Shown: positions 9,661 to 56,813 of the stretch, in pieces
How the letters are laid out: each line of letters opens with the position of its first letter
Position numbering within the stretch: position 1 is the first letter of the stretch
Origin: an uncultured Gammaproteobacteria bacterium
GTDB taxonomy: Bacteria > Patescibacteriota > Patescibacteriia > Patescibacteriales > UBA12075
DNA: 64,000 nucleotides
Assembly: GCA_964459725.1 (NCBI GenBank)
Contig: CAYWNT010000001.1
Span: 155,529-219,528 of the forward strand
Direction: 5' to 3'
Notes under the pieces: model-generated
What the model saw: the letters and a program-made list of their open reading frames with translations, nothing else
Database searches by the model: none
What the model was told of the DNA's origin: nothing
Program-made: the position numbers and the translations under genes

Positions 9661-9699
9661 TCTTTGATTAAAATTTTGGTAAATAAATTTTGCAATTGT

Positions 9700-11184
9700 A
9701 TGAAGTATAAATGCGATGTTTGTAATGTTTATGAATATGATGATGCTCTGGGTGATGCTAGCCTGGGAGTTGCTCCTGGGGTGAGGCCAAATGATCTTCC
9801 CTCTGATTGGAAGTGTCCAATTTGCCAATCAGATAAAACACACTTGATTCCACAAGAAGGCAAAAACACACTAAAAAGAATCAGGGAGGCAATCTTTGGT
9901 ACGTGGTTGCCAAGAGAAGAGGAGGATATCCAATCCTCGACCAGGGAAAAAGATTCAGATCAGTATTTAGATGAATGGAAAAGAAGGGGCGATAAATTGG
10001 AGGGGTATATGAAGGATATTCATGAGATGTCCGTTACTGGAAAGTCCATTGTCGAGCCGATGAGGACTAAAAAGAGTGTAATATCCTGGGATAATATTTT
10101 ATTTCTTGGTGCGCAATTAGCCAAGATGCCGCTGAATGAAGATGAGGAAGTGAGCACCAAGACGATAATTGGCCCCAAAGCAAAAAAGCCGCTTGAGATA
10201 GAGGCTCCTATTTATATCACCCATATGTCTTTTGGCGCGCTGTCCAAGGAGATCAAGATTGCCTTAGCAAGAGGAAGTGCCGCGGTCAAGACTGCTATGT
10301 GCTCTGGTGAGGGAGGGATCCTGAAAGAGTCAATGAATGAGGCGTATAAATATATTTTTGAGATTGCTCCAAATAAATATAGTTTAAACGATGAGAATCT
10401 AAAAAACTCTGATGCTATAGAAATAAAGATCGGCCAATCTGCCAAGCCGGGAATGGGGGGACATTTGCCAGCAGAAAAAGTTACTCTTGAGATTGCTAAG
10501 CTAAGAGGTTATAATGAAGGTGAGGATATTGTTTCACCTGCTAGGTTTGAAGATATAAAAGACAGAAATGATTTGAAGTCTTTTGTTGGTGATCTGAGAA
10601 CTAGATCAGAAGGAAGACCGATTGGAATTAAGATAGCAGCAGGACACATTGAGGCTGACTTGGAATATGCGCTTTTCGCTGAGCCTGATTTTATTACCAT
10701 TGACGGACGACCTGGGGCCACGGCAGCTGCGCCAAAGTTTATCAAGGGCTCAACATCTGTTCCAACTTTGTTTGCGCTACACAGAGCTAGGAAGTATTTT
10801 AAAGAAAATAATGTTAAGGATGTTTCCTTGGTGATTACAGGAGGATTTCGAGTGTCATCAGACATAGCCAAGGCTCTAGCTATGGGAGCGGACGCAGTAG
10901 CTCTCGGGACTTCTGTTTTAATGGCCTGTGCCTGTCAGCAATATAGAATTTGCCAGACAGGTGATTGCCCGGTTGGTGTAACTACCCAGAAAGATGATTT
11001 GCGGAGTAGGATAAAGATAGATGCTTCAACAAAGAGACTAGAAAATTTCCTGAAAGCGACGATTGAAGAGCTAAAACAATTTGCCAGGCTAACAGGAAAT
11101 GATGATGTTCACAAAATGAGTCTTGGAGATATTTGTACTGACAATTCTGAAATTTCAGAGTTTACAGATATTAAGCATGTTTAA
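9700..11184 (+). CDS. rubredoxin domain fused to glutamate-synthase-related FMN-binding (GltB domain 2-like) protein
   Basis: The N-terminus YKCDVCNVYEYD...DWKCPICQSDK is a rubredoxin. The body has GEGG, IKIGQSAKPGMGGHLP and DFITIDGRPGATAAAP blocks, typical of GltS FMN domains. The start is moved to ATG 9700; the track starts at TTG 9664. Confidence 0.8.
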   Translation: MKYKCDVCNVYEYDDALGDASLGVAPGVRPNDLPSDWKCPICQSDKTHLIPQEGKNTLKRIREAIFGTWLPREEEDIQSSTREKDSDQYLDEWKRRGDKLEGYMKDIHEMSVTGKSIVEPMRTKKSVISWDNILFLGAQLAKMPLNEDEEVSTKTIIGPKAKKPLEIEAPIYITHMSFGALSKEIKIALARGSAAVKTAMCSGEGGILKESMNEAYKYIFEIAPNKYSLNDENLKNSDAIEIKIGQSAKPGMGGHLPAEKVTLEIAKLRGYNEGEDIVSPARFEDIKDRNDLKSFVGDLRTRSEGRPIGIKIAAGHIEADLEYALFAEPDFITIDGRPGATAAAPKFIKGSTSVPTLFALHRARKYFKENNVKDVSLVITGGFRVSSDIAKALAMGADAVALGTSVLMACACQQYRICQTGDCPVGVTTQKDDLRSRIKIDASTKRLENFLKATIEELKQFARLTGNDDVHKMSLGDICTDNSEISEFTDIKHV

Positions 11185-19158: not shown

Positions 19159-20643
19159 ATGGGAAAGCCGATCAGCGTTAAATTGGCACCAAGAGGCAAT
19201 GTGAATCCAATTAGATCAGCCTGTTTTGCGGCGTTGCTTTGCTATATGGCGAGAATTCCCAAGTGGGGGAAGCTGATAGATTGGTATAAAAAACTTTTTG
19301 GAACTGGGCACCATACAACATTTATGCACGCAGCTTCATATTTCACTTTTGTGATTGAGGGAATAAGCGTAGGGGATATTACTTTTGGTTTTCATCTGAC
19401 TTCGCCTTTTTACAACTCGAGTCAACGAAGTGGACGTTATTGTTCAGCAATGTTTGTTCGATATTTTAAAAAGGTAAGGAATACCTTAAAGATGTATTTG
19501 ATGAAACTATTCCCAGGCTATGAACCTGAGCTTGAAGCCGGAACGACACCGGATGCTTTTCCTGAAAAAAAGTTAGCAGAAATGGAGGAGTATATTAGAG
19601 CGTATTGGCCAGAGGTTGATGAAAAAGAATTATCTTCAATAATGGATTATGTCCGATTCGGTATCGGGGTGTTTCAGTCAAATATTATGGATGCCACTAA
19701 AGTGGCTACGGATTTTGCTAAAGAGGAAAGACCCTTTGTAAAAGCTGATTATTTGGCGGATACTGCTCCAAAGTTTGCCCAAGAGCAGCTTAGGAATTTT
19801 ATTCCTGTATTAGCTCCTACTGGGATGGTTCATACCGTAAATTTGATTACACTGGTTGCTCTTTATGAGTCTGCCTGGACTCCCGCTATGCGTCATGTGA
19901 CAGAGGAAATGGTGAGATTAGTTTTGGAAAAATATCCAGAATTGGCATCGATGTTTGACGAGAAAAACCGTAGAACAGATGATTGGGCTATGGAATTTGA
20001 CGGTGATGATAATTATTTAGCGAAAGCGCCTTGCGCTGTAGTTATAGATGTACGTAATGCTGATAGTCTCGTCTCTCCAAAATATTATGATCGTCATCCG
20101 GTAGATAAGTTGCATTTTAGACCAGAACTTATGGATAACGCGGTAGGACATATAATTTCAAGCGTGTCTTTGTCGGTGGCAACCATGGGTCAGGACCAGC
20201 GACATAGAACAATTCGTCGTGGTACGCCAATGTTTACAGGAGGATTTTATTTACCTCCAGTTGTCGCAGCTCTAGGTTTAGACAAGGAAGCAATGAGGAT
20301 GATTACAGAATGGCGTGCAATAGCCACTAAAGTTCCAGCATCCCTGGCTATGATATTAGCGCCTTATGGTGCTATGGCATCTTACGAAAAATCCGGATCA
20401 TTCCTTGCGGTTGATCATGAGCAGGGGAAGAGAACTTGTTGGTGTGCTCAAGAGGAGATATATTGGCTGGGAGTTCTGATTCGGAAAAAAATTGAAAACA
20501 AACTAGGCAAAGATCATTCGTTATTGCAGATTTTTGAACCACCTTGCTACAGAACGGGCAAGTGCGGTGAAGGTGATAGATATTGCGGTCGTGATTTGCG
20601 AGTAAGAGAAAAGGGAGACTATTTTCCGAGAAGAAAAATTTAA
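19159..20643 (+). CDS. ThyX-like (FAD-dependent thymidylate synthase family) protein, long and divergent
   Basis: GTGHHTTFMHAASYFTFVIEGISVGDITFGFHLTSPFYNSSQRSGRY parallels the ThyX core GHxSxxEHxxFTFxIxGxSR...RHR...SxxSxRY. The RHR is missing there; a QRHRT occurs about 250 aa later. Confidence 0.5.
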   Translation: MGKPISVKLAPRGNVNPIRSACFAALLCYMARIPKWGKLIDWYKKLFGTGHHTTFMHAASYFTFVIEGISVGDITFGFHLTSPFYNSSQRSGRYCSAMFVRYFKKVRNTLKMYLMKLFPGYEPELEAGTTPDAFPEKKLAEMEEYIRAYWPEVDEKELSSIMDYVRFGIGVFQSNIMDATKVATDFAKEERPFVKADYLADTAPKFAQEQLRNFIPVLAPTGMVHTVNLITLVALYESAWTPAMRHVTEEMVRLVLEKYPELASMFDEKNRRTDDWAMEFDGDDNYLAKAPCAVVIDVRNADSLVSPKYYDRHPVDKLHFRPELMDNAVGHIISSVSLSVATMGQDQRHRTIRRGTPMFTGGFYLPPVVAALGLDKEAMRMITEWRAIATKVPASLAMILAPYGAMASYEKSGSFLAVDHEQGKRTCWCAQEEIYWLGVLIRKKIENKLGKDHSLLQIFEPPCYRTGKCGEGDRYCGRDLRVREKGDYFPRRKI

Positions 20644-25850: not shown

Positions 25851-28800
25851 ATGAATAATCAGAAAAATCAGCAGAAAAGGAGCTCTTTTCCGGACATGGA
25901 GAAGGAGGTTTTGGCTTTTTGGCAAAAGAATAATATTTTTGAAAAATCAGTTGAAAACCCACCCCACCCTGACGGGCATCCCTCCAAGGAGGGGACTCCG
26001 GTTGAGGATTATGTTTTTTATGATGGGCCTCCTTTTGCCACCGGACTACCTCATTATGGTCATATAGTCGGAACAATAATGAAAGATGTAGTGCCAAGAT
26101 ATTGGACAATGCAAGGCAAAAGAGTTGAGCGCAAATGGGGATGGGATTGTCATGGTCTTCCTATTGAGAATATTGTTGAGAAAGAGCTTGGATCAAAGAA
26201 GAAAAAAGACATTGAAGAGGGTGTAGGTGTTGCGAAGTTCAACGAGCTTTGTAGATCAAAGGTTTTAAGCTATGTTGATGACTGGGAAAAAGTAATAAAA
26301 AAAATTGGTCGATGGGCGGATATGAAGAATGCTTACAAAACAATGGACATTGAATACATGGAATCTGTCTGGTGGGTGTTTAAGGAACTCTGGGATAAGA
26401 ACTTGATTTACAAAGATCATAGATCTATGCATGTTTGTCCTAGATGTGAGACTACCTTGTCACAGTCAGAGGTGACAGAAGGGTATGCTGATATCAAGGA
26501 TTTGTCAGCGATTGCCAAGTTTGAGTTGGAGGATGATGGCCCTTCGGCAGGCTCAGGGCAAGCTAAAACTTTCGTTTTAGCCTGGACTACTACACCTTGG
26601 ACATTGATTGGAAATGTTGCCTTGGCGGTTGGTAAAGATATAGATTATGTAAAAGCTGGAATCAAGAATCAGGAATCAGGAGTTACAGATAATTATATAA
26701 TTGCTAAAGAGTTGGCAGAAAAAGTTTTTAAGGATAGGGAGTTTGATGTTGTTGAAGAATTTAAAGGAGAGAAATTGATTGAAAAAAAATATAAACCCCT
26801 ATTTGATTATTATTCATCTGATAAAAATCTGGAAAATAGAGAAAATGGATGGCAGATTTATGGAGCTGATTTTGTAACCACTGAGGAGGGCACAGGAGTA
26901 GTTCATATTGCTCCGGCTTTTGGTGAGGATGATATGAGATTGGGTCATGAAAAGAATTTACCTTTTGTGCAGCATTTAACTATAGATGGTAATTTCAAAG
27001 AGGAAGTAGCTGACTTTAAGGGACTCAATGTGAAGCCAAAGGATAATCACATGTCGACTGATATTGAGATTATCAAATACTTAGCTCATAATGGGTTACT
27101 TTTTCACAAGGAAAAATACGAGCATAGCTACCCGCATTGTTGGCGCTGTGATACCCCGCTTATCAACTATGCAACGAGTTCTTGGTTTGTAAATATTACA
27201 AAAATAAAAGATAGAGCCCTAGAGACTGCTAAAGATGTGAATTGGTCACCAGAACATATCAAGAGAGGTCGTTTTGGTAAGTGGCTGGAGGGTGCTCGTG
27301 ATTGGTCAATTTCTCGTCAGCGTTTTTGGGCTAGCGTAATGCCTATCTGGAAATGCGATAAATGTGCTGATACTAAAGTTTTTGGATCAGTTGAGGAGTT
27401 GAGTGAGCATTTTGGAAATCCAAATAAATTATATCTAGTAAGACACGGGGAGGCGGAACAAAATGTTGCGCATATTCTAAATTCTGACTTAAATAACAAT
27501 CATTATCATTTAACAGAAAATGGGCGAGAGCAAGTTGAAAAAACAGCTAAAGAACTAAGGGATAAAAAAGTTGATTATATATTTTGTTCTCCATTTTTAA
27601 GAACAAAGGAGACGGCAGAAATCATATCAAAAGATCTAGGTGTAGAAATAATTTTTGATGATAGATTAAGTGAATTTGGTGTTGGTGATTTTGAGGGGAA
27701 AAATCAAGAAGATTTTATGAGGGTTTTTTCTAATTGGCCGGAAGAGAATATAGATTTAAGAAAAAAACATGGTGTAGAACTTGAAAAAGAGGCAGAAGAA
27801 AGATTTTCTAGTTTCTTGAATGAATTAAATGAAAAACACAAGAACAAGAATATAGTTATTGTTTCTCATGGAGATCCTCTTCAGTTTATGTATAGCCTGT
27901 TACAGGGAGTCGATAGGATAAAAACTTATAGTAGTGAGTATTACTCAGAAAAGGGAAAATCTAAGTTTTCTTATTCAAGGCTTGTCGATCTCCATAAACA
28001 TATAGTTGATGAAATTAAATTTGGGTGTGATAAGTGCGATGGCGAGATGGTTAGAGTTCCTGATGTGTTGGATACTTGGTTTGATTCTGGATCAATGCCA
28101 TATGCGCAGATGCATTATCCTTTTGAAAATAAAGAAAAGTTTGATAATAATTTCCCGGCAGAATTTATAGCTGAAGGATCTGATCAGACCAGGGCCTGGT
28201 TTTACTATATGCACATGATTGCTAATGGAATTAAGGATAAAAATGCTTATAAAAATGTGATTGTAAATGGTATAGTGCTCGCTGAAGATGGAAAAAAGAT
28301 GAGCAAAAAGCTTCAGAATTATCCGGATCCAATGGAGTTACTTGATAAATACGGGGCTGATGCACTTCGTTATTATCTCCTTACATCTCCAGTGATGTTG
28401 GCTGATAATTTGAATTTTTCTGAAGACGGAGTAAAGGAGTCTCTTAGGAAGGTAAATATGATTCTTTGGAATGTGGTGAGATTTTATGATTTATTTGAAG
28501 ATAAGTCGAAAGTTTATAAAACCGAAAGACCAAATAGTGAGAATATCTTAGATCAATGGATACTGGCAAGACTAGATGAGTTGATTGTTGAGGTGGGAGA
28601 GAATATGGAGAAATATAATTTGCCAAAAGCAACAAGGCCTATAGTTGAGTTTATTGATGATTTATCTACTTGGTATATCAGAAGAAGTCGTGACCGATTT
28701 AAATCAGAACATGAGAAGGACAAAGAAAGTGCTTTGGCGACAACCGGGCATCTGTTAGTCGAGCTTTCAAAGGTGATGGCACCATTTACACCATTTATTG

Positions 28801-29402
28801 CGGAGCAAGTATGGCAAAAAATAATTGGAAATGATTTTAAAGATGAGAATAAATCAGTTCATTTGGAAAGTTTTCCTAAGGAAGAAAAAGGACATGAAGT
28901 ATCCGAGGTGAAAATAATTGAAAGAATGAGTATGGCCCGAAAGATTGTTGAGATGGGTCTGGCAAAACGTGATGAAGTTGGAATTAAAGTAAGACAACCT
29001 CTTAACGAATTACGAATTACAAATTTCGAATTAAGGGATGAATATGTTGACTTGATTAAGGATGAAATGAATGTGAAATCCGTTGTTAGTGAAAAAGGCG
29101 AGGGTGATATGTCGGTTGAGCTGGATACTGAGATTACACCTGAACTAAAATTGGAAGGGGTGAAAAGAGAATTGGTTAGATATATTAACGCCCAGAGAAA
29201 AAAACAGGATTTGTCTATTCGTGATTTTGTGGTTATTGAATGGCAAGGAGAAAAAGAAATCAAAAAGGCGTTTGATAAATTTAGTGAAGAAATAAAGAAA
29301 GAGACTTTATCTCTGGATATTGTGGAGAAAGAAAAGGTAGATGATGGAGTGAGTGTAAAAATAGAAGGAGAAGAATTAATTTTAAAAATTAATAAAAAAT
29401 AA
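25851..29402 (+). CDS. ileS: isoleucine--tRNA ligase (type 2) with internal domain insertion
   Basis: PHYGH (HIGH), KMSKK (KMSKS), the WTTTPWTL editing-domain block, and DWSISRQRFW. 1183 aa. Confidence 0.95.
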   Translation: MNNQKNQQKRSSFPDMEKEVLAFWQKNNIFEKSVENPPHPDGHPSKEGTPVEDYVFYDGPPFATGLPHYGHIVGTIMKDVVPRYWTMQGKRVERKWGWDCHGLPIENIVEKELGSKKKKDIEEGVGVAKFNELCRSKVLSYVDDWEKVIKKIGRWADMKNAYKTMDIEYMESVWWVFKELWDKNLIYKDHRSMHVCPRCETTLSQSEVTEGYADIKDLSAIAKFELEDDGPSAGSGQAKTFVLAWTTTPWTLIGNVALAVGKDIDYVKAGIKNQESGVTDNYIIAKELAEKVFKDREFDVVEEFKGEKLIEKKYKPLFDYYSSDKNLENRENGWQIYGADFVTTEEGTGVVHIAPAFGEDDMRLGHEKNLPFVQHLTIDGNFKEEVADFKGLNVKPKDNHMSTDIEIIKYLAHNGLLFHKEKYEHSYPHCWRCDTPLINYATSSWFVNITKIKDRALETAKDVNWSPEHIKRGRFGKWLEGARDWSISRQRFWASVMPIWKCDKCADTKVFGSVEELSEHFGNPNKLYLVRHGEAEQNVAHILNSDLNNNHYHLTENGREQVEKTAKELRDKKVDYIFCSPFLRTKETAEIISKDLGVEIIFDDRLSEFGVGDFEGKNQEDFMRVFSNWPEENIDLRKKHGVELEKEAEERFSSFLNELNEKHKNKNIVIVSHGDPLQFMYSLLQGVDRIKTYSSEYYSEKGKSKFSYSRLVDLHKHIVDEIKFGCDKCDGEMVRVPDVLDTWFDSGSMPYAQMHYPFENKEKFDNNFPAEFIAEGSDQTRAWFYYMHMIANGIKDKNAYKNVIVNGIVLAEDGKKMSKKLQNYPDPMELLDKYGADALRYYLLTSPVMLADNLNFSEDGVKESLRKVNMILWNVVRFYDLFEDKSKVYKTERPNSENILDQWILARLDELIVEVGENMEKYNLPKATRPIVEFIDDLSTWYIRRSRDRFKSEHEKDKESALATTGHLLVELSKVMAPFTPFIAEQVWQKIIGNDFKDENKSVHLESFPKEEKGHEVSEVKIIERMSMARKIVEMGLAKRDEVGIKVRQPLNELRITNFELRDEYVDLIKDEMNVKSVVSEKGEGDMSVELDTEITPELKLEGVKRELVRYINAQRKKQDLSIRDFVVIEWQGEKEIKKAFDKFSEEIKKETLSLDIVEKEKVDDGVSVKIEGEELILKINKK
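25957..25995 (+). repeat. GC-rich bipartite hairpin element, copy 1 (in frame in ileS)
   Basis: ACCCACCCCACCCTGACGGGCATCCCTCCAAGGAGGGGA. Related copies lie at 46922..46960 and 59451..59495. Confidence 0.85.
27426..27986 (+). other. histidine-phosphatase (PGAM-type) domain inserted within IleRS
   Basis: LYLVRHGEAEQN...LTENGREQ...FCSPFLRTKETAEII...IVIVSHGDPLQ lies between ...SVEELSEHFGNPN and DLHKHIVDEIKFGCDKCDG. Confidence 0.8.
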
Positions 29403-29404
29403 AT

Positions 29405-29755
29405 ATGAATATTCAAGACATTAGCGCTGATGAGTTAAGAGCGCGACTCAAAGAGAATAGGGAAAATATTGAGGTGATAGATGTGCGTCAGCCAGAGGAG
29501 TATGAAATAGTTCATATCAAAGGATCAAAATTGATTCCAATGAATGAGCTTATGTCTCGTTTGAACGAGGTAGATTGGGACAAGGAGGTAGTGTTTATTT
29601 GTCGCAGTGGCTCTCGAAGCAAATTAATGGCAAGTATGGCTGCCAGTGGTGATAGAAAAATTAATAATCTTCAATACGGGATACATGAATGTTTTGCTGA
29701 TAAGAAGGGGGAAAACTTGGAAGTAGATGAAGATATGATTGATAAATATTTTTAA
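29405..29755 (+). CDS. rhodanese-like domain protein
   Basis: Active-site loop FICRSGSRS. 116 aa. Confidence 0.85.
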   Translation: MNIQDISADELRARLKENRENIEVIDVRQPEEYEIVHIKGSKLIPMNELMSRLNEVDWDKEVVFICRSGSRSKLMASMAASGDRKINNLQYGIHECFADKKGENLEVDEDMIDKYF

Positions 29756-29784
29756 TAACCTCCAGGGGTGTTAATAAAAAATAT

Positions 29785-30132
29785 ATGGAAATAAATAATA
29801 TTGACGCAAAAGGCCTTAAAGAGCTTTTGAAAAACAGAGAGAATCTCGAGTTGATCGATGTCAGAGATAAGGATGAGTATGACCTTGTTCATATTAAGGG
29901 ATCAAAGTTAATGTCCATGAGGGATATAGTGAAGCGCTCCGAGGAGATAGACTGGAGCAAGGAAGTTGTCTTCATTTGCCGTAGCGGTGAAAGGAGTATG
30001 ATGGTGGCGAATTTTCTAGCTGACTCTGGGAAGAGGATTAGCAACTTATTTGGTGGAATATTGGAGTATTGGAAGAGTGGTGAATTAGATCTAGAATTTC
30101 TAGAGGGAAAAGATGTCGAGAAATATTTTTAA
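29785..30132 (+). CDS. rhodanese-like domain protein (paralog)
   Basis: Active-site loop FICRSGERS. Collinear with the previous gene. Confidence 0.85.
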   Translation: MEINNIDAKGLKELLKNRENLELIDVRDKDEYDLVHIKGSKLMSMRDIVKRSEEIDWSKEVVFICRSGERSMMVANFLADSGKRISNLFGGILEYWKSGELDLEFLEGKDVEKYF

Positions 30133-30161
30133 AATATTTTGTAAGTTTTAATATTTAAAAC

Positions 30162-31175
30162 ATGCCAAAAGTTAAAGCCTTAGTTTTGATATCAGGCGGA
30201 CTGGACTCCATGCTTGCAGCCAAGATGCTTCAAGAGCAGGGAGTAGAAGTTGTTGGGTTAAGTTTTGTTAGTAATTTTTTTGATGCAAAAAAAGCTTACA
30301 AAACAGCACGAGATATCGGAATTGAGTTAAAAGCCATAGATTTCAGCAAGGAACATTTGGAAATGGTAAAAAATCCAAGATCTGGATATGGAAAGAATAT
30401 GAATCCTTGTATTGACTGTCATAGTCTCATGCTTCAACATGCCAAAAAAATCATGGAGGAGGATGGTTATGATTTTGTGGCGACTGGGGAAGTACTTGGC
30501 CAGAGGCCAATGTCTCAGAATAGGGAGGCTTTGAATAAGGTAGAAGAGTATTCCGGTCTTGGTGATAAGTTGTTGCGTCCGTTATCTGCGAAGTTTTTGG
30601 AAGAAACTGAACCGGAAAGGACTGGAAAGTTAAAAAGAGGGAAATTAGGAAGAATAAAAGGGCGCGGGAGAGATAGTCAGATGGAGCTAGTAAAAAAATA
30701 CAAGATAAAAGACTATGAATCACCTGGTGGTGGCTGCTTGCTAACTGATCCCGAATTTAGTCAAAGACTTTTAAAACTATTTGAAAACTGGCCAGATTGT
30801 GAAGGTAATGATATAAACCTTTTAAAGTGTGGGAGAATAATTTGGACAAAGTGCAAAAAAAATACTATAATAATTGTAATAGGGCGCCACAAGGAAGACA
30901 ATGAAAAGTTGCATTTTTTATCCTCAGAAGGAGATGTGGTTATTGAGCTAAAGGATGATAATGGTCCTACAACTCTAATTCGCTCCAGGAGTGATCAAGA
31001 TTTTTTCAATAAAGAGATTGAGGTGGAGATTCCTGAAAAATTAGATAAAAAATATAAAGACCTACAAGAAGTGGAAAGTGTTGATGACTTAATTAAAAGT
31101 GCGGCAGAGATAACTGGATATTATGCAGTTAAACTGAGAGGAGAGAAAAGAAAAATGAAAGTAAGAGTTGTATAA
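30162..31175 (+). CDS. PP-loop ATPase, MnmA/ThiI-like tRNA thiolation enzyme
   Basis: PP-loop LISGGLDS, then NPCIDCH...ATGEVLGQRPMSQ...LLRPLSAK...GGGCLLTD. Confidence 0.7.
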   Translation: MPKVKALVLISGGLDSMLAAKMLQEQGVEVVGLSFVSNFFDAKKAYKTARDIGIELKAIDFSKEHLEMVKNPRSGYGKNMNPCIDCHSLMLQHAKKIMEEDGYDFVATGEVLGQRPMSQNREALNKVEEYSGLGDKLLRPLSAKFLEETEPERTGKLKRGKLGRIKGRGRDSQMELVKKYKIKDYESPGGGCLLTDPEFSQRLLKLFENWPDCEGNDINLLKCGRIIWTKCKKNTIIIVIGRHKEDNEKLHFLSSEGDVVIELKDDNGPTTLIRSRSDQDFFNKEIEVEIPEKLDKKYKDLQEVESVDDLIKSAAEITGYYAVKLRGEKRKMKVRVV

Positions 31176-48973: not shown

Positions 48974-49288
48974 AAATGGACAATTATATTGACATATTTA
49001 AAAAAATTTGTTTATATATATTAACAAATTATTTTAGATTGCTAAAAAATAGTTAATGTTTGGAGAATAAATAAAACGAGAAATCGAATTCGAGAAAATT
49101 TATGTTATGAATTCGTTTTTTTTATTTTCCCAATATTGGCACAATATCCTCATGCAACTTGGAATTAATTGATATTCGAGTGGTTACTATTTTTAATTAA
49201 ACTTACTCCCCGGGAACGGGGCACGACTCAAGCCGCATAGGCGTTGAGATTTTTTTATTTTCAAATATTTAATAATTTTAATATAAAT

Positions 49289-52200
49289 ATGTTTTACTCA
49301 AAAATTCCTAATTATAAAGGCGCGGAAGATAGAAAGTATTTTATCGGTTCTCATGCATCTGTGCAAATGCCTGACTTGATAGAGTCCCAGAAAGATTCTT
49401 ACAAGTGGTTCCTAAAAGAAGGGCTAGCTGATTTATTCGATGAAATTTCTCCGGTTACTGATTTTATTGGACGCGACTTAGAGCTTTATTTCAAAGATTT
49501 TGTATTGGACGAACCAAAATTCAACGAAGTTGAAAGTAGAAAAAAGAACATCACTTATGAAGCACCTCTTAGAGTGAAAGTTGTGCTTACAAACAAAAGA
49601 ACAGAGCAAACTGAAGAGCAGGAAGTATTTCTGGGAGATTTTCCTTTGATGACTGATAACGGCACTTTTATTATTAATGGAATTGAGAGAGTTGTAGTTT
49701 CTCAGCTTATTAGAAGTGCTGGTGTGATTTTCTCATCTGAATTTTTGAAGGGCAAGAAATATTACGGAGCAAAAATAATTCCAAACAGAGGAGCTTGGCT
49801 TGAAATCGAGACAGATGCTAATAAAGTAATCTGGGTGAGAATAGATAGAAAGAGAAAAGTTGCTGTTACTTCTTTGCTTCGAGCATTTGGCATTAGTGAT
49901 GATGAGGAAATTATAGATCTGTTCAAGGATGTAGATGTTAAAGCAGACGGAGAGGATGGTTATATTGATGCCACTATTGCAAAAGATATTGCTAAAAACG
50001 AAGCAGAAGGTCTAAAGGAGGTTTACAAGAGAATTAGACCAGGGGACTTAGCGACTACAGAAAATGCGCGTCAGTTAATTTACTCCATGTTTTTCAGGTT
50101 CGACAGATATGATTTTGACCGTGTAGGTAGATATAAGCTAAATAGAAAATTCGGATTTGATATCCCAAATAACAAAGAAACAAGAATTTTAAGAAAAGAA
50201 GATCTGATTTCAATTATCAAGGAAGTTATCAGACTAAATATCACCCAGGAAGATGAAGATGATATCGATCATCTGGGAAATAGAAGGGTGAGAGCAATTG
50301 GTGAATTGATCCAAAATAAATTTAGAGTCGGTTTGGCTAGAATGGAAAGAATTATCAAGGATAGGATGAGTACAGCCGATATAAATGAAATAAATCCGGG
50401 CAAGCTGATTAATGCTAGGCCGGTTATTAGTGTTGTGAAAGAATTTTTTATGTCATCACAGCTATCACAGTTCATGGACCAGATTAATCCTCTGGCTGAG
50501 CTAGAACATAAGAGACGTTTGTCTGCTATGGGACCAGGTGGTCTGACTCGTGAAAGAGCAGGCTTTGATGTTCGTGATGTGCATACTACTCATTATGGAA
50601 GAATTTGTCCTATCGCAACTCCTGAGGGACCAAATATTGGTTTGATTGGTCATTTGGCAAGTCATGCCAAATTGAATAAGTATGGCTTTCTAGAGGCACC
50701 GTATAGAAAGGTTATAAATAGTGTTCCAAACAAAAAAGAGGAAACAGAAGGACATGTTGCCAGTGAAGATGTTTGTATAATTAAAAATGATAAAAAAGGA
50801 AAGGTAATTGTAAAGGGTGGAGAAACTATCAATAAGAAAAAAGCAAGTGAAATAGAAGACAAGATTGATGTCGACACTATGATTCCGGTTAAGCCTGTTG
50901 TTACTTCGGAGATTCACTATCTTGATGCTTTTGAAGATGAGAAGTTTGTTACAACCGCTTTCACTACTCCGATTGATGAAGATGGACATTTCCTTGTAAA
51001 TAAATGTGAGGGAAGAGTGCAGGGAACACCAGGTACTGTTGAGGTTAATAAAGTTGATTATTTAGGGGTGGCTGCAAATCAAATTATTTCTATTGCTACA
51101 TCACTTATTCCATTCATGGAACACGATGATGGTCAGAGAGCTCTGATGGGAACAAACATGCAACGTCAGGCTGTGCCTTTGGTTTCGCCTGATTCTCCAA
51201 TTGTAGGTACTGGTATGGAGGGAAATGCTGCAGTTAATTCTGGACATGTAATCGTGGCAGAGGATAACGGAGAAGTGACTGTGGTAGATGGAGACAATAT
51301 TGAAGTTAAATATAAAGGAGATAAAACTGTGAAATATGAGCTAACGAAATTTCTTCGATCAAATGCTTCAACATGTATTAATCAAAAGCCAATCATAGAT
51401 GTTGGTGATAAAATAAAAAAAGGTCAGAGTTTGACCGATGGACCTTCAATTGATAATGGAGAGCTTGCTCTAGGAAAAAATGTTTTGGTAGCATTTATGA
51501 CCTGGGAAGGGTACAACTTTGAGGATGCTATTATCGTATCTGAGAGAATGGTAAGTGATGATGTTTTCTCTTCTATTCATATTGAAGATTATACTATTGA
51601 TATCCGAGATACAAAACTTGGCGAAGAAATGATTACTAGTGATATTCCCAACATCAGTGAGGAGAAATTAAAAAACCTTGACGATAGAGGTATTATTAGA
51701 ATCGGTGCGGAAGTGTCATCTGGTGATATATTGGTTGGTAAGATTACTCCGAAAGGTGAAACAGAATTGTCAGCTGAAGAAAAGCTTCTTCGAGCTATTT
51801 TTGGAGAAAAGGCAAAAGATGTTAGAGATTCTTCACTGTATCTAGAGCATGGTGAGCATGGTAAGGTAGTTGATGTTAAAATATTTTCAAGAGAAGATGG
51901 TGATAAATTGTCAGCTGGAGTTTTACAGTCTGTTCAAGTCACAGTCGCTAATTTGAGAAAAATTCAGGTTGGAGACAAGATGGCGGGTCGTCATGGAAAT
52001 AAAGGTGTTATTTCAAAGATAGTTCCAGTTGAAGACATGCCGCACATGGAAGATGGAACACCAATTGATGTGATTCTTTCTCCTCTTGGTATTATTTCTC
52101 GTATGAACCTGGGTCAACTTCTTGAAACACACCTAGGATTTGCTGCAAAAAAACTTGGTTACAAGGCAGCAACACCTGTTTTAAATGGTATTTCCGAAGA

Positions 52201-52774
52201 AGAGATAAAAGAAGAGCTTATAAAAGCAGGCCTATCAGAAGATGGAAAGGTGGCCTTGATTGACGGTAAGACAGGGGAAAAATTTGATAACAAAGTTACT
52301 GTGGGATACAAGTACATGTTAAAACTGAACCACATGATTGAAGATAAGATTCACCAGAGATCAATTGGACCATACTCACTTATTACTCAACAGCCTTTGG
52401 GTGGTAAAGCTCAGTTTGGTGGACAGAGATTTGGAGAAATGGAAGTGTGGGCATTGGAGGCTTATGGAGCTGCCCATTGTTTGCAGGAAATTCTAACTAT
52501 TAAATCTGATGATGTGCCAGGAAGAAGCAAGGCTTATGAATCAATTATTAAGGGAGAGGAGATTAGAAAGTTAAACGTACCTGAATCATTTAACGTTTTG
52601 GTTAGAGAAATGAAAGGTCTTTGTTTGGATGTTGAATTACTTGGAGGAGATGATCAACCGGTAAATCTGGAGTTAGACGAGGAAGATGTTGAAACTGTTC
52701 CGGCTGAAAATGATGACAAAGGAGATAATGATGAAAAAAAGGAAGAAGAGAGCAGTGAAGACTCTGAAAAATAA
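49289..52774 (+). CDS. rpoB: DNA-directed RNA polymerase subunit beta
   Basis: Collinear conserved RpoB blocks, for example GRHGNKGVISKI and QRFGEMEVWALEAYGAA. The start is moved to ATG 49289; the track TTG 49244 lies inside a leader hairpin. Confidence 0.95.
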   Translation: MFYSKIPNYKGAEDRKYFIGSHASVQMPDLIESQKDSYKWFLKEGLADLFDEISPVTDFIGRDLELYFKDFVLDEPKFNEVESRKKNITYEAPLRVKVVLTNKRTEQTEEQEVFLGDFPLMTDNGTFIINGIERVVVSQLIRSAGVIFSSEFLKGKKYYGAKIIPNRGAWLEIETDANKVIWVRIDRKRKVAVTSLLRAFGISDDEEIIDLFKDVDVKADGEDGYIDATIAKDIAKNEAEGLKEVYKRIRPGDLATTENARQLIYSMFFRFDRYDFDRVGRYKLNRKFGFDIPNNKETRILRKEDLISIIKEVIRLNITQEDEDDIDHLGNRRVRAIGELIQNKFRVGLARMERIIKDRMSTADINEINPGKLINARPVISVVKEFFMSSQLSQFMDQINPLAELEHKRRLSAMGPGGLTRERAGFDVRDVHTTHYGRICPIATPEGPNIGLIGHLASHAKLNKYGFLEAPYRKVINSVPNKKEETEGHVASEDVCIIKNDKKGKVIVKGGETINKKKASEIEDKIDVDTMIPVKPVVTSEIHYLDAFEDEKFVTTAFTTPIDEDGHFLVNKCEGRVQGTPGTVEVNKVDYLGVAANQIISIATSLIPFMEHDDGQRALMGTNMQRQAVPLVSPDSPIVGTGMEGNAAVNSGHVIVAEDNGEVTVVDGDNIEVKYKGDKTVKYELTKFLRSNASTCINQKPIIDVGDKIKKGQSLTDGPSIDNGELALGKNVLVAFMTWEGYNFEDAIIVSERMVSDDVFSSIHIEDYTIDIRDTKLGEEMITSDIPNISEEKLKNLDDRGIIRIGAEVSSGDILVGKITPKGETELSAEEKLLRAIFGEKAKDVRDSSLYLEHGEHGKVVDVKIFSREDGDKLSAGVLQSVQVTVANLRKIQVGDKMAGRHGNKGVISKIVPVEDMPHMEDGTPIDVILSPLGIISRMNLGQLLETHLGFAAKKLGYKAATPVLNGISEEEIKEELIKAGLSEDGKVALIDGKTGEKFDNKVTVGYKYMLKLNHMIEDKIHQRSIGPYSLITQQPLGGKAQFGGQRFGEMEVWALEAYGAAHCLQEILTIKSDDVPGRSKAYESIIKGEEIRKLNVPESFNVLVREMKGLCLDVELLGGDDQPVNLELDEEDVETVPAENDDKGDNDEKKEEESSEDSEK

Positions 52775-52880: not shown

Positions 52881-55800
52881 ATGCTTAATCCAATAAAAAC
52901 AACGGACTTTGATGCTATTAGGCTCAAATTAGCTTCTCCGGGAGAGATTGAAAAATGGTCTTATGGTGAAGTAGTTAGGCCCGAAACAATTAATTACAGA
53001 ACTCAGAAACCTGAGAAAGGTGGTTTATTTTGCGAAAAGATATTCGGCCCTTCAAAAGACTGGGAATGTTATTGTGGAAAATATAAAAAAATCAGATACA
53101 AGGGAATTGTATGTGATAAGTGTGGAGTAGAGGTTACCAGAAGTATTGTCAGAAGAGAAAGAATGGGTCATATCCACCTAGAAACTCCATGTACTCATAT
53201 TTGGTTTTTGAGAGGATTGTCTTCAAAAATCGGATTATTGCTTGGTTTGTCAATGCAGGCTCTGGAAAAGGTTGTTTATTTTGCCAATTTTATCGTAACA
53301 GATGTAAATGAAGAATTGAAAACTGCTACTCTAGATCAAATCAAAACAGAGTTTACTCAGAAGAAAAAATCAATTGAAGGCGAATACAATAATCAATGCT
53401 CACAGTTGAAAAAGAAAGCAGGTGAGGCAGATAAGGCAGACTTGGACAATAACCTCGAAGCCTTGAAAAAAGCAAAAGATGAAAAACTGGAGAATCTTCA
53501 AAGTGCTTTTGATCAGGCGCAGAAAGAGTTAAAAGATCTAGCTCCTTTGATGATTTTGTCAGAAAATGATTATCAGAATTTAAGTTTAAAATATGGTCAT
53601 ATTTTTGAGGCTGGAATTGGAGCAGAGGCGGTAAGAAAACTTTTGGAAAGACTAGACCTGAAAAAAACTATAAAAACAATCGAAATCGAACTAAAAGAGG
53701 CAATAGAATCAAAGATAGAAAAACTGAACAAGAGATTAAAGCTCTACAAGAGTTTGGATGCTAGCAACATAAGGCCAGAGTGGATGATACTTGAAAATGT
53801 GCCAATTATTCCTCCAGATCTTAGACCTATGGTAGCCCTAGACGGTGGAAGATATGCTACAAGTGATTTGAATGATCTCTATAGAAGGGTGATAAATAGA
53901 AATAATAGATTGAGACAGCTCATAGAATTGAATGCGCCTGAGGTTATTTGTAGAAATGAAAAAAGAATGTTGCAAGAGGCTGTTGATGCTTTGATTGATA
54001 ATTCTGCCAGACATGGTAAAACCGTTATTGCTTCTACCGGACAAAAGAGAATGTTGAAGTCATTGGCTGACTCTCTAAAGGGTAAACAAGGAAGATTTAG
54101 ACAGAACTTGCTTGGTAAACGTATTGATTATTCTGGGCGTAGTGTAATTGTAGTGAATCCAAAATTAAAGCTGGATCAATGTGGTCTTCCTAAAACAATG
54201 GCGATCGAGCTTTTTAAGCCTTTTGTTATTAGTAAATTAATCGAAAGAGATATAGTTCATAATGTACGTAGCGCTTCACGGTTTATCGATTCTGGAGAAG
54301 ATATTGTTTGGGATATATTGGAAGAGATTATTGCCGGAGCATATGTACTATTGAATCGTGCTCCTACTTTGCATAGATTGGGTATTCAAGCCTTTAAGCC
54401 GATCCTTATTGAGGGTAAGGCTATCCAGATTCACCCATCAGTTTGTTCAGCCTTTAATGCTGACTTTGATGGTGACCAGATGGCTGTTCATGTGCCGCTT
54501 ACTAAAGAGGCAATTGACGAAGCAGCGAATATTATGATTTCCTCCAAGAACCTCTTGAAGCCAGCTACAGGAGATCCTGTGGTGGCGCCGAGTCAGGATA
54601 TCGTCTGGGGAGCTTATTATCTAACTGATGCTTTAGAAAAAAATCCAGACAAGGAAATAAAAGTGTTCTCATCAGAAAAAGAAGTTGATATTGCCTACAA
54701 GAGTAAAAAAATAAGTTTACAGGAATTGATCATGGTAAAGATTGATAAGATGGGTGTTATAGAGACTACTGCGGGCAGAGTAATATTTAATGATATATTG
54801 CCTGAAAAACTTAGATTTATAAATGAAGTAGTGAGCAAAAGCGATCTTGGGAAGCTATTTAGAAGTTGTTACAGATATTATGGTAATGACAGAACAGTAG
54901 AATTGGTTGATGAGTTGAAGGAAAAAAGTTTCCATTTCATTACTAAGAGTGGATTGTCATGGAGCATGGGGGATTTGCCTAAGTTTGATGAGAAAGATGA
55001 GCTCTTAGAAAAAACTCAAAGCGATGTAGAAAACATCCAAGAGCAATTTGATGACGGTTTATTAACAGAGAGTGAGAGATACGCAAAAATTATTGAGCTC
55101 TGGACTGCTGCCAAGGATAGGGTTACAGAAATTTGTAAAGATGGACTTACTAAGGATAGTCCGGTATTTTCGATGATTGATTCTGGCGCTAGAGGTAGTT
55201 GGGCTCAGCTTACTCAGATATTGGGCATGAAAGGTCTGGTGACTTCTCCGTCTGGAGATATTATTGAATTGCCGGTAAAGGGTAACTTCAAAAAAGGTTT
55301 TGGAGTACTAGAATATTTTATTTCTACTCATGGTGTGCGTAAAGGTTTGTCTGATACAGCGCTTAGAACTGCGAATGCTGGATATCTAACCAGACGTTTA
55401 GTGGATGTTGCGCAAGACATAATAATCGCCGAGGATGATTGTGGTGACACTGAAGGATTTGTTGTTACCAAAGAAGAGAGTGAAGAAATCGGACAAAATA
55501 TTGTAGATAAAATTCTTGGTAGATATTTGGCAGGTGATTTGAAAGACGCTAAAGGAAAAGTCCTCATAAAGAAAGGTGAGTTGGTGGATGAATCAATGGC
55601 TGAAAAGTTACAAAAGAAAGATATAAGAGAAGCCCACATAAGATCAGTGCTTAGTTGTAAGCTCTCTAGGGGTGTTTGCGCGAAGTGTTATGGATGGGAT
55701 TTGAGTCATAATGAATTGGTAAAAATTGGTACATCTGTTGGAATTATTGCTGCTCAATCTATTGGTGAGCCAGGAACTCAGCTTACTATGAGAACCTTTC

Positions 55801-56813
55801 ACACTGGTGGTATTGCTGGTGTTGAGGATATCACCCAAGGTCTTCCTAGGGTTGAAGAAATTTTTGAGTCTAGAACTCCGAAGAGAAAAGCAATATTGGC
55901 TGATGTGGCAGGCAAGGTGAAAATTGAGACAGCTCAGGTGGTAGCGGACGACGGAAGCGGAAAAGAAGTTGCTACTACTCCTCAAGGTAAGATTTTGAAG
56001 ATTTATTATGACGGCAAAGAAACAGACAAATACAGCATTACTGAAAAATTACAAAAGCATAAGCTAAAATCTGCTGCTGATGATAAAACCAAGAAAGCAA
56101 CTTTGAAAGATGTGAAGATAAAGGTTAAGGATGGACAGGAGATTTCAAAAAATGATGTTTTGTTTGTTATCAAAACAGATAAAGTGAAGGCAGATAGAGG
56201 CGGGGTAGTTCACGTTGATGGAAAAAACATTAAAGTGGAGGCAGATGCTAAGAAGGTGAAAGAGTTTGTCATTTCAAAGGGAACCTCTTTGCTGGTCAAT
56301 GATGGAGATGTTGTAAACATGGGTGATCAGCTAACTGACGGTAGTTTGGATCTTAAACATTTTTATTCACTCAGAGATAGATTGGCCACACAGAAATATA
56401 TTATCAAGGAAATTCAAAATGTATACTCATCTCAGGGTCAGCCATTGAATGATAAGCATATCGAGGTTGTAGCAAAACAGATGTTCTCACGTTTCTTGGT
56501 TAAAAATCCAGGAGATACTACTCTCTTGTCAGGGGAGGTTGTGGAGAGTGGAGTGGTTGATAGAGCGAATAAGGAGGTTGAAGACAAGAAGGGCGAGAAG
56601 GCAACAACCGAAAGACTGCTAATGGGCATTACTAAGGCTTCATTAACCACTGATAGTTTCTTATCTGCTGCTTCATTTCAGGAAACGGCTAGAGTTCTTA
56701 TCGACTCTGCCGTAAGCGGTAAGATTGACTACCTAGAAGGTTTAAAAGAGAATGTTATTATCGGTCGTTTGATTCCTTCAGGAACGGGTTATAGAAAGAA
56801 GGAGAAGAAATAG
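52881..56813 (+). CDS. rpoC: DNA-directed RNA polymerase subunit beta'
   Basis: Zn-binding CYCGKYK...CDKCGVEV, the catalytic NADFDGDQM motif, and the RpoC C-terminal blocks. Confidence 0.95.
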   Translation: MLNPIKTTDFDAIRLKLASPGEIEKWSYGEVVRPETINYRTQKPEKGGLFCEKIFGPSKDWECYCGKYKKIRYKGIVCDKCGVEVTRSIVRRERMGHIHLETPCTHIWFLRGLSSKIGLLLGLSMQALEKVVYFANFIVTDVNEELKTATLDQIKTEFTQKKKSIEGEYNNQCSQLKKKAGEADKADLDNNLEALKKAKDEKLENLQSAFDQAQKELKDLAPLMILSENDYQNLSLKYGHIFEAGIGAEAVRKLLERLDLKKTIKTIEIELKEAIESKIEKLNKRLKLYKSLDASNIRPEWMILENVPIIPPDLRPMVALDGGRYATSDLNDLYRRVINRNNRLRQLIELNAPEVICRNEKRMLQEAVDALIDNSARHGKTVIASTGQKRMLKSLADSLKGKQGRFRQNLLGKRIDYSGRSVIVVNPKLKLDQCGLPKTMAIELFKPFVISKLIERDIVHNVRSASRFIDSGEDIVWDILEEIIAGAYVLLNRAPTLHRLGIQAFKPILIEGKAIQIHPSVCSAFNADFDGDQMAVHVPLTKEAIDEAANIMISSKNLLKPATGDPVVAPSQDIVWGAYYLTDALEKNPDKEIKVFSSEKEVDIAYKSKKISLQELIMVKIDKMGVIETTAGRVIFNDILPEKLRFINEVVSKSDLGKLFRSCYRYYGNDRTVELVDELKEKSFHFITKSGLSWSMGDLPKFDEKDELLEKTQSDVENIQEQFDDGLLTESERYAKIIELWTAAKDRVTEICKDGLTKDSPVFSMIDSGARGSWAQLTQILGMKGLVTSPSGDIIELPVKGNFKKGFGVLEYFISTHGVRKGLSDTALRTANAGYLTRRLVDVAQDIIIAEDDCGDTEGFVVTKEESEEIGQNIVDKILGRYLAGDLKDAKGKVLIKKGELVDESMAEKLQKKDIREAHIRSVLSCKLSRGVCAKCYGWDLSHNELVKIGTSVGIIAAQSIGEPGTQLTMRTFHTGGIAGVEDITQGLPRVEEIFESRTPKRKAILADVAGKVKIETAQVVADDGSGKEVATTPQGKILKIYYDGKETDKYSITEKLQKHKLKSAADDKTKKATLKDVKIKVKDGQEISKNDVLFVIKTDKVKADRGGVVHVDGKNIKVEADAKKVKEFVISKGTSLLVNDGDVVNMGDQLTDGSLDLKHFYSLRDRLATQKYIIKEIQNVYSSQGQPLNDKHIEVVAKQMFSRFLVKNPGDTTLLSGEVVESGVVDRANKEVEDKKGEKATTERLLMGITKASLTTDSFLSAASFQETARVLIDSAVSGKIDYLEGLKENVIIGRLIPSGTGYRKKEKK

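Follow-up and report, generated by a model that had tools for sequence, protein, structure and literature searches.

Few known enzymes are as conserved as the aminoacyl-tRNA synthetases, and to our knowledge bacterial members that carry an extra, unrelated catalytic domain nested in the catalytic body are very rare. Why, then, should an isoleucyl-tRNA synthetase (IleRS) harbor within its own fold what appears to be a complete phosphatase? This question is raised by the ileS gene at 25851-29402 of a 64,000-nucleotide stretch of DNA (hereafter the window; positions 155,529 to 219,528 of contig CAYWNT010000001.1, assembly GCA_964459725.1) from an uncultured, ultra-small member of the Patescibacteria radiation (CPR). 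The gene, which like all features below lies on the forward strand unless stated otherwise, encodes in a single open reading frame (ORF) a type-2 IleRS of 1183 amino acids, in which residues 526-712 (27426-27986) constitute an inserted branch-1 histidine-phosphatase domain (HP) of about 187 residues. As the best overall explanation, which we regard as moderately probable, we propose that the HP nested in the CPR IleRS would be an active phosphomonoesterase held attached as an accessory site, with a nucleotide-type molecule as its likeliest substrate.

The synthetase and its embedded phosphatase

A sequence-only reading of the window had recognized the 1183-residue ORF as an IleRS by its hallmark motifs and had placed a phosphatase domain at 27426-27986; all the motifs were located, and these coordinates correspond exactly to residues 526-712. 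Equivalog and subfamily assignments were made by comparing NCBIfam bit scores with the cutoff of each model, and by this measure the protein is an ileS equivalog (TIGR00392, 885 bits against a cutoff of 621). The mupirocin-resistance enzymes MupB and MupA (739 and 704 bits, cutoff 1900) and the ileS_w_GNAT family (NF040702; 307 against 1999) were considered as identities and rejected. The best sequence matches in the PDB are the IleRS2 structures 8C8V and 8C8U (E=2e-222 for 8C8V), and the synthetase body modeled with AlphaFold2 (AF2) superposes on 8C8V, 8WND and 1ILE with target-normalised template-modelling (TM) scores of 0.79-0.89. For comparison with relatives we used the 120 closest IleRS clusters, and residue invariance in the synthetase was scored in a 63-sequence alignment (A1), according to which the HIGH, KMSKS and CP1 editing motifs and the zinc-knuckle cysteines are all intact. 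The class I HIGH motif takes the form HYGH (residues 68-71, 26052-26063; H68, G70 and H71 invariant), the CP1 editing-site motif WTTTPWTL (residues 245-252, 26583-26606) is invariant, and the KMSKS motif reads KMSKK (residues 816-820, 28296-28310; K816 and K819 invariant); the sequence DWSISRQRFW was likewise found in the translation. The locus matches the argS-ileS-recO position of insert-less orthologs, from which we argue that the ileS of the window is probably the housekeeping gene, and a search for extra copies found no second ileS, free HP, NUDIX gene or argS in the 64-kb window.

The inserted domain is matched by the His_Phos_1 profile (PF00300) over residues 527-688, with E=1.4e-36 in the whole protein and 3.5e-38 for nucleotides 27426-27986 alone (126.5-131.7 bits against a curated cutoff of 21.7). 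The catalytic arginines, histidines and glutamate named in the sequence-only reading are kept after proper alignment with 61 insert-bearing homologs: the RHG motif with R531, the catalytic nucleophile H532 and G533 (27441-27449), the phosphate-pocket arginine R584 (27600-27602) and the second catalytic histidine H673 of the SHGD motif (27867-27869) are invariant in 61/61, and the presumed proton donor E608 (27672-27674) is glutamate in 58 and aspartate in the remaining 3. Free-standing relatives of the domain show the same invariant R, H, G, R, H core, with an equivalent of E608 in at least 90% of them. We used AF2 for both whole-protein and insert-only models, and Foldseek for the nearest folds. 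The whole protein was modeled with a mean predicted local distance difference test score (pLDDT) of 85.6 and a predicted TM score (pTM) of 0.78, with pLDDT 85-97 across the insert, which is thus predicted to form a discrete, confidently folded lobe. The insert alone gave pLDDT 88.6 and pTM 0.87, and its model, in which a cap is inserted into an alpha/beta fold built around a central sheet, as in the histidine-phosphatase superfamily, matches 4IJ5, 9MMH, 6NRU and 1H2E with TM scores of 0.71-0.78, the best being 4IJ5 (PspA, 0.78). Taken together, these results suggest that the insert is a complete, apparently active branch-1 phosphatase of the PhoE/CobC/PspA-like type. It nevertheless belongs to no characterised equivalog, because its scores fall far below every cutoff: identity with dPGM (NF038349, dPGM_arch, 115-120 against 225; TIGR01258, 30.5 against 81.7), PspA (94 against 350), CobC (93-93.5 against 162.9), SixA (44 against 74.5) and GpmB (also below its equivalog cutoff) was in each case rejected.

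The domain had been described as inserted within the catalytic core of the synthetase. That it is inserted within IleRS holds, but the site lies at the periphery of the Rossmann fold, in its CP3 zinc-knuckle subdomain, rather than in the core itself. The CP3 subdomain has been defined in published IleRS structures, and in the Thermus-type enzyme it carries a zinc-binding motif (PMC7191050). In the window protein the N-terminal half of the knuckle, PIWKCDKC...GSVEELSEHFGNPN, bears the first CxxC (C502 and C505; 27342-27425), and the C-terminal half, DLHKH...CDKC...VLDTWFDSG, bears the second (C726 and C729; 27987-28091), the cysteines of both halves being invariant in A1. Since these invariant CxxC halves flank it, the HP takes the place of the distal loop of the zinc knuckle. 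Residues 521 and 711 align with residues 478 and 485 of 8C8V, and as this alignment leaves only that gap, the canonical linker amounts to about 6 residues against the 187 present here, in agreement with the short linker given for type-2 IleRS in the sequence-only reading. The boundaries of the insert were set by alignment with insert-less orthologs, and the junctions read ...GNPN/KLYL... and ...SRLV/DLHK.... Insert-less CPR orthologs, whose consensus starts PIWxCxCGexKVfGSvkELEE-(SGeKIT), span 62-66 residues from PIW to WFDS, as against 243-269 in insert-bearing ones. The linkers flanking the HP are at most 3-4 residues on each side, and the Pfam match to tRNA-synt_1 is split into two stretches by His_Phos_1.

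The possibility of misassembly, raised when the fusion was first noticed, was removed by its recurrence. The HP is present in 62 of the 120 closest IleRS clusters, on contigs of up to 903 kb, and the identical protein as well as many relatives were found in independent assemblies; with the same in-frame junction recurring in dozens of assemblies from different samples, we rejected an assembly chimera. A metagenomic search for the same fusion, as had been suggested, was conducted as an exhaustive HMMER scan with the insert alone over 1.84 billion 50%-identity representatives. Its 147 best matches comprise 80 IleRS (56 with both flanks), 57 free-standing proteins of at most 260 residues and 10 free tandem HP-HP proteins, and no host protein other than IleRS was found among these 147 representatives. 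In a separate scan of species-representative genomes, at least 24 CPR genomes showed an HP at the same site of ileS. These loci span Paceibacteria, Microgenomates, Buchanan-, Zambryski-, Kaiser- and Wolfebacteria, Peribacteria, Gracilibacteria (on a 1.2-Mb chromosome) and Saccharibacteria-labelled metagenome-assembled genomes, the taxon labels of some such genomes being possibly unreliable. On these counts the HP-bearing IleRS is a widespread and evolutionarily dynamic trait of the CPR rather than a singular oddity.

The junctions are likewise free of the marks of a mobile element. An intein or other splicing element was rejected, as the window protein has no Pfam match to a Hint/intein family and direct reading shows neither Cys, Ser or Thr at the N-junction nor His-Asn at the C-junction; this absence of splicing residues had already been remarked. 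A transposon-like insertion was also rejected, as the junctions show neither a target-site duplication nor terminal repeats. The profile match, the conserved catalytic set and the confident fold, together with the lack of intein features, support the original view of a bona fide domain insertion. Full-text literature searches found no paper describing an HP nested in IleRS, in keeping with the sequence-only reading, to which no such architecture was known. Proteins of this type are already present in public databases, unremarked, under the names 'isoleucyl-tRNA synthetase' or 'class I tRNA ligase family protein'. Both parts belong to well-known families, and it is their combination that is new to the literature as found.

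Operon partners and cassette exchange

Where did the domain come from? A search with the insert alone recovered free HP relatives of about 190 residues, 37-49% identical to the insert, from other CPR lineages. In 11 loci the free HP gene lies directly upstream of an insert-less ileS on the same strand in the order argS-HP-ileS; these include every locus opened for the free HPs and 8 further, species-representative loci. In the three loci checked with real start codons (L028, L034 and L037), argS overlaps the start of the HP gene, whose stop codon is separated from the ATG of ileS by 4 nucleotides. Fused lineages show the arrangement smpB ... argS - ileS[HP] - recO - tgt without a free HP gene. 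Because the HP is an operon partner in some genomes and a nested domain in others, the two arrangements form a Rosetta-stone pair, and the comparison suggests that a free-standing phosphatase gene is the ancestor of the HP module or an exchange partner for it. A conserved ORF of about 50 residues with a hydrophobic C-terminal half also separates argS from the free HP gene in loci of the Moranbacteria type (L001 7841-7996, L005 7783-7935, L006 2528-2680).

The phylogenetic trees used here are crude, distance-based neighbour-joining trees, that of the IleRS core being built with the insert columns removed, and they are insufficient for counting gains versus losses. In the core tree the presence of the insert is patchy. 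The HP-domain tree places the free operon HPs as a sister group to the main clade of inserted ones and sets apart a further inserted clade with a longer form, so that at least two insert clades are apparent in these trees. The divergence of insert and core is correlated (r=0.63), the insert evolving faster (mean identity 38% versus 65%).

A close allele pair suggests how the module may move. The IleRS clusters P0052 and P0109, obtained from different samples, share 94.9% of their protein sequence and 96-97% of their DNA sequence. What sets them apart is the HP together with diverged flanks of about 45 nucleotides upstream and 25-30 nucleotides downstream, as would be expected if homologous recombination had swapped a cassette comprising the HP and its CP3 borders. 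In the DNA of the two alleles (L091 and L092) the HP-bearing contig (L091) diverges after '...IKVRQPL' and lacks the C-terminal ~130 residues, which reflects either a truncated allele or the end of a chimeric contig; the pair is therefore informative for the indel but was not taken to show that both alleles function. As for the window, its insert has a GC content of 31.4%, and 21.9% at third codon positions, as compared to 37.2% and 32.3% in the rest of the gene; no other 561-nucleotide stretch of ileS is so low in GC, and the change coincides with positions 27426 and 27986. P0004, the nearest relative by core sequence, is 72% identical and has no insert. Given this GC step and the insert-less P0004, the HP of the window was probably acquired as a cassette from a lineage of lower GC. 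More generally, lineages appear to have gained or lost the module by swapping a cassette in which the adjoining CP3 codons are included, and such gain and loss look recent and recombinational.

Other modules on the same synthetase

The HP is one of several catalytic modules that are found on, or beside, the IleRS of CPR bacteria. A NUDIX (MutT-like) domain occurs in the CP1 loop just before WTTTPWTL in P0044, P0011, L043 and L074, and in a second CP1 loop, just before GTGVVHxAPAxG, in P0033 and at the same site in P0056 and P0086. Both loops are empty in the window protein (residues 226-240, 26526-26570, of which 231-235 have low pLDDT; residues 322-333, 26814-26849). Free NUDIX genes overlap the ileS stop codon (L001 13918-14457, L004 12712-13251) or lie just upstream of ileS (L007 7165-7620, L059 4339-4839, L065 2380-2892); they belong to different subfamilies, NudE-like and MutT/NudI-like, and when abutting ileS are sometimes followed by a rhodanese. 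The HP itself is duplicated in some enzymes, either as a tandem HP-HP in CP3 (P0211 and the Peribacteria loci L033, L035, L036 and L039) or as a second HP in the loop that starts the anticodon-binding helical domain (P0215, P0216 and P0239), where each copy keeps the RHG, pocket arginine, acidic residue and second histidine; the equivalent loop of the window protein is empty (residues 878-903, 28482-28559). In P0066 (L010 8001-11975) a P-loop module separates the cysteine pair of the first CxxC in CP3 and immediately precedes the HP. Over its full length it is closest to APS kinase (8A8H, E=8e-5) and dephospho-CoA kinase, both of which are adenosine-3'-OH kinases. Whole-domain insertions are thus tolerated by a loop in CP3, by two in CP1 and by one in the anticodon domain, which is useful for engineering.

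Rhodanese domains are a further companion of this synthetase, being fused to its C-terminus in P0011 and encoded adjacent to ileS in L009, L059, L065 and L066. In the window two tandem single-domain rhodanese genes directly follow ileS (29405-30132), with the active-site loops CRSGSRS and CRSGERS. They are followed by a ThiI/MnmA-like PP-loop ATPase (29405-31175 overall), and together the rhodaneses and the ATPase look like a tRNA-thiolation cassette. The gene order ileS-rhodanese-...-T2SSE-LemA-...-M48 is common to the window and to the Falkowbacteria locus L009, whose IleRS has a NUDIX domain and not an HP.

Among the other contents of the window, an antisense ORF of 185 residues, rich in Ser, Phe, Ile and Thr, lies on the reverse strand within the 3' end of ileS (28859-29416) and is almost certainly a shadow of the Lys/Glu-rich sense frame and not a gene. 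The chromosomal DNA of the window also includes uvrB, rpoB (49244-52774) and rpoC (52881-56813). A 494-residue ORF at 19159-20643, about twice the usual length of ThyX, shows the ThyX (Thy1) domain only over residues 17-261, its C-terminal half having no assignment, and a 506-residue protein at 9664-11184 combines an N-terminal rubredoxin with a glutamate-synthase-like FMN domain. ARAGORN found no tRNA genes, and no Rfam family scored above threshold, in the 64-kb window.

Candidate functions and known counterparts

What might a phosphatase do on this synthetase? We propose that selection keeps the HP physically on IleRS, where it would serve as an accessory catalytic site beside the synthetic and editing sites. 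It would act on a ribose phosphate of the adenosine unit handled by IleRS: either on the 2'/3'-phosphorylated terminal A76 of the tRNA, a block to charging, or, close to the synthetic site, on a small molecule of the 3'-phospho-adenylate or pNp type, and the NUDIX partners would cut the matching pyrophosphate linkages one step earlier. A nucleotide-type substrate is suggested by the nucleotide-directed nature of the NUDIX and P-loop partners and by the host itself, as IleRS binds adenosine at two sites, namely those for ATP/Ile-AMP and for A76; this support is circumstantial. We give a nucleotide-type substrate of any kind an about even chance, while the tRNA 3' end, as one member of that class, would be an unlikely substrate. 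An unrelated small metabolite is possible, though on the low side of probability, a regulatory, protein-phosphatase or sensor role is quite unlikely, and the lack of any catalytic role is very improbable.

Several observations weigh against the proposed accessory site. Published IleRS-tRNA structures do not report a contact of CP3 with tRNA, and if tRNA ends were repaired in general, one would look for the activity on the CCA-adding enzyme or on a range of synthetases rather than solely on IleRS. The insert is acidic to neutral (net charge -6 in the window, mean -1) and retains the helical cap typical of small-molecule HPs. The kinase-like module of P0066 was found in one cluster only, with weak E-values of 1e-4 to 1e-5. 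The argS-HP-ileS adjacency could be a historical accident that eased fusion without functional coupling. Finally, close relatives manage without the insert, and on this account we treat the HP as accessory.

The acidic character, the cap and the dispensability would suit a hitch-hiker, that is, an ordinary metabolite phosphatase or mutase (e.g. dPGM-like, phosphoserine or cofactor-pathway) that was captured from the ancestral ileS operon into a permissive loop and works independently, the fusion ensuring only co-expression in a genome reduced to a minimum. In line with this, the best NCBIfam matches are dPGM_arch, PspA and CobC, the closest solved enzymes all act on small metabolites, and the free form is a normal gene of about 190 codons, with free tandem HP-HP proteins also existing. 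However, those matches stay far below their equivalog cutoffs (120 against 225, 94 against 350 and 93 against 163), and IleRS is the sole host among the 147 closest representatives. Moreover, the HP entered IleRS at two loops and was duplicated there, modules of the NUDIX, kinase-like and rhodanese types have each joined this enzyme independently, and the very short linkers imply a fixed orientation and not a loosely tethered passenger. We consider capture of such a passenger a possible but distinctly minor contender.

The patchy distribution, very recent gain and loss and cassette exchange could alternatively point to a regulatory or protective module, which would reverse an inhibitory phosphorylation of IleRS (e.g. 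by a HipA-like toxin kinase) or sense an alarmone or metabolite, as part of conflict-driven accretion on an antibiotic or toxin target. That several hydrolase and kinase modules accrete on one essential target, that NCBIfam lists a GNAT-bearing IleRS family (NF040702) and that the HP superfamily includes the protein phosphatases SixA, Sts and PGAM5 all speak for it. Yet genes for toxins, kinases or immunity are absent from the conserved neighbourhood, the scores of SixA-type models stay under the cutoff (44 against 74.5) and the cap is of the kind typical of small-molecule enzymes. Membership of the insert in a defence system was rejected, its best match in PADLOC being at chance level (13.9 bits), and we judge such a role improbable. 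The weakest alternative, an assembly chimera, intein, other self-splicing element or degenerate and inactive passenger, might draw on the low GC of the insert and on the truncated or possibly chimeric L091 allele, but it is already effectively refuted, because the in-frame junction recurs across dozens of assemblies, the catalytic residues are invariant or near-invariant in 61 homologs with a confident fold, and splicing features, target-site duplications and terminal repeats are wanting.

The proposed accessory site may be taken one step further, in a speculative form that we hold to be doubtful as a whole. The HP would then be a third catalytic centre policing adenosine-ribose phosphorylation and would remove 2'/3'-phosphates at the CCA end or from adenylate-like ligands. 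NUDIX domains would clip 3'-pyrophosphates like those that toxSAS/CapRel-type toxins install, and the APS-kinase-like module would perform the reverse reaction, the whole forming a modular, recombination-shuffled system for tRNA-end repair or for countering toxins. In any event, the combination of fusion and operon linkage is a classic Rosetta-stone signal, one that would link isoleucine charging to a chemistry of phosphorylated nucleotides or tRNA ends not predicted by current knowledge, and the HP-bearing IleRS offers a directly testable entry into the translation-linked biochemistry of organisms that are not yet culturable alone.

In comparison to known systems, the host enzyme is conventional. 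It has in common with Priestia megaterium IleRS2 (8C8V) and Thermus thermophilus IleRS (1ILE) the HIGH, KMSKS and CP1 editing motifs, the zinc-binding CP3 and a DUF5915-type C-terminal domain, and differs from the canonical 8C8V type in having a 187-residue HP where the latter has a loop of about 6 residues. The ileS_w_GNAT family (NF040702) is likewise a bacterial IleRS with an added enzymatic domain, which is however an acetyltransferase and not a phosphatase; literature searches found no paper on this family. The E. coli CCA-adding enzyme has an HD-domain phosphatase/2',3'-cyclic phosphodiesterase with a presumed role in the healing of tRNA ends, but, its fold and host being unrelated to those of the HP-bearing IleRS, it provides an analogy for the tRNA-end reading only. 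PFK-2/FBPase-2 and the polynucleotide kinase-phosphatases unite a P-loop kinase and a phosphatase in one polypeptide, the FBPase-2 part being a branch-1 HP. The kinase-like module and HP of P0066 are reminiscent of PFK-2/FBPase-2, though in P0066 both are nested in a loop of an aminoacyl-tRNA synthetase and the similarity to kinases is weak. An HP is also joined to a nucleic-acid enzyme in the mycobacterial RNase H/CobC-like acid phosphatase (Rv2228c type, NF005567), which the insert matches with 74-76 bits, far below the 326-bit cutoff; there, the HP is fused end to end with RNase H and not inserted in a synthetase. Closest in fold, size and the RHG/R/E/H residues are Hydrogenobacter PspA/iPSP1 (4IJ5), Aquifex HFP (9MMH), CobC (6NRU, 6E4B) and PhoE (1H2E), with sequence matches of E=7e-19 to 1e-10. 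PspA acts on phosphoserine, CobC on alpha-ribazole-5'-phosphate, a nucleotide, and HFP, the ARAPDP phosphatase of the riboflavin pathway (PMC12051542), on a nucleotide-like ribityl 5'-phosphate. PspA, HFP, CobC and PhoE are all free-standing enzymes of soluble metabolites, in contrast to HPs of the kind described here, which are embedded in IleRS or encoded 4 nucleotides upstream of it.

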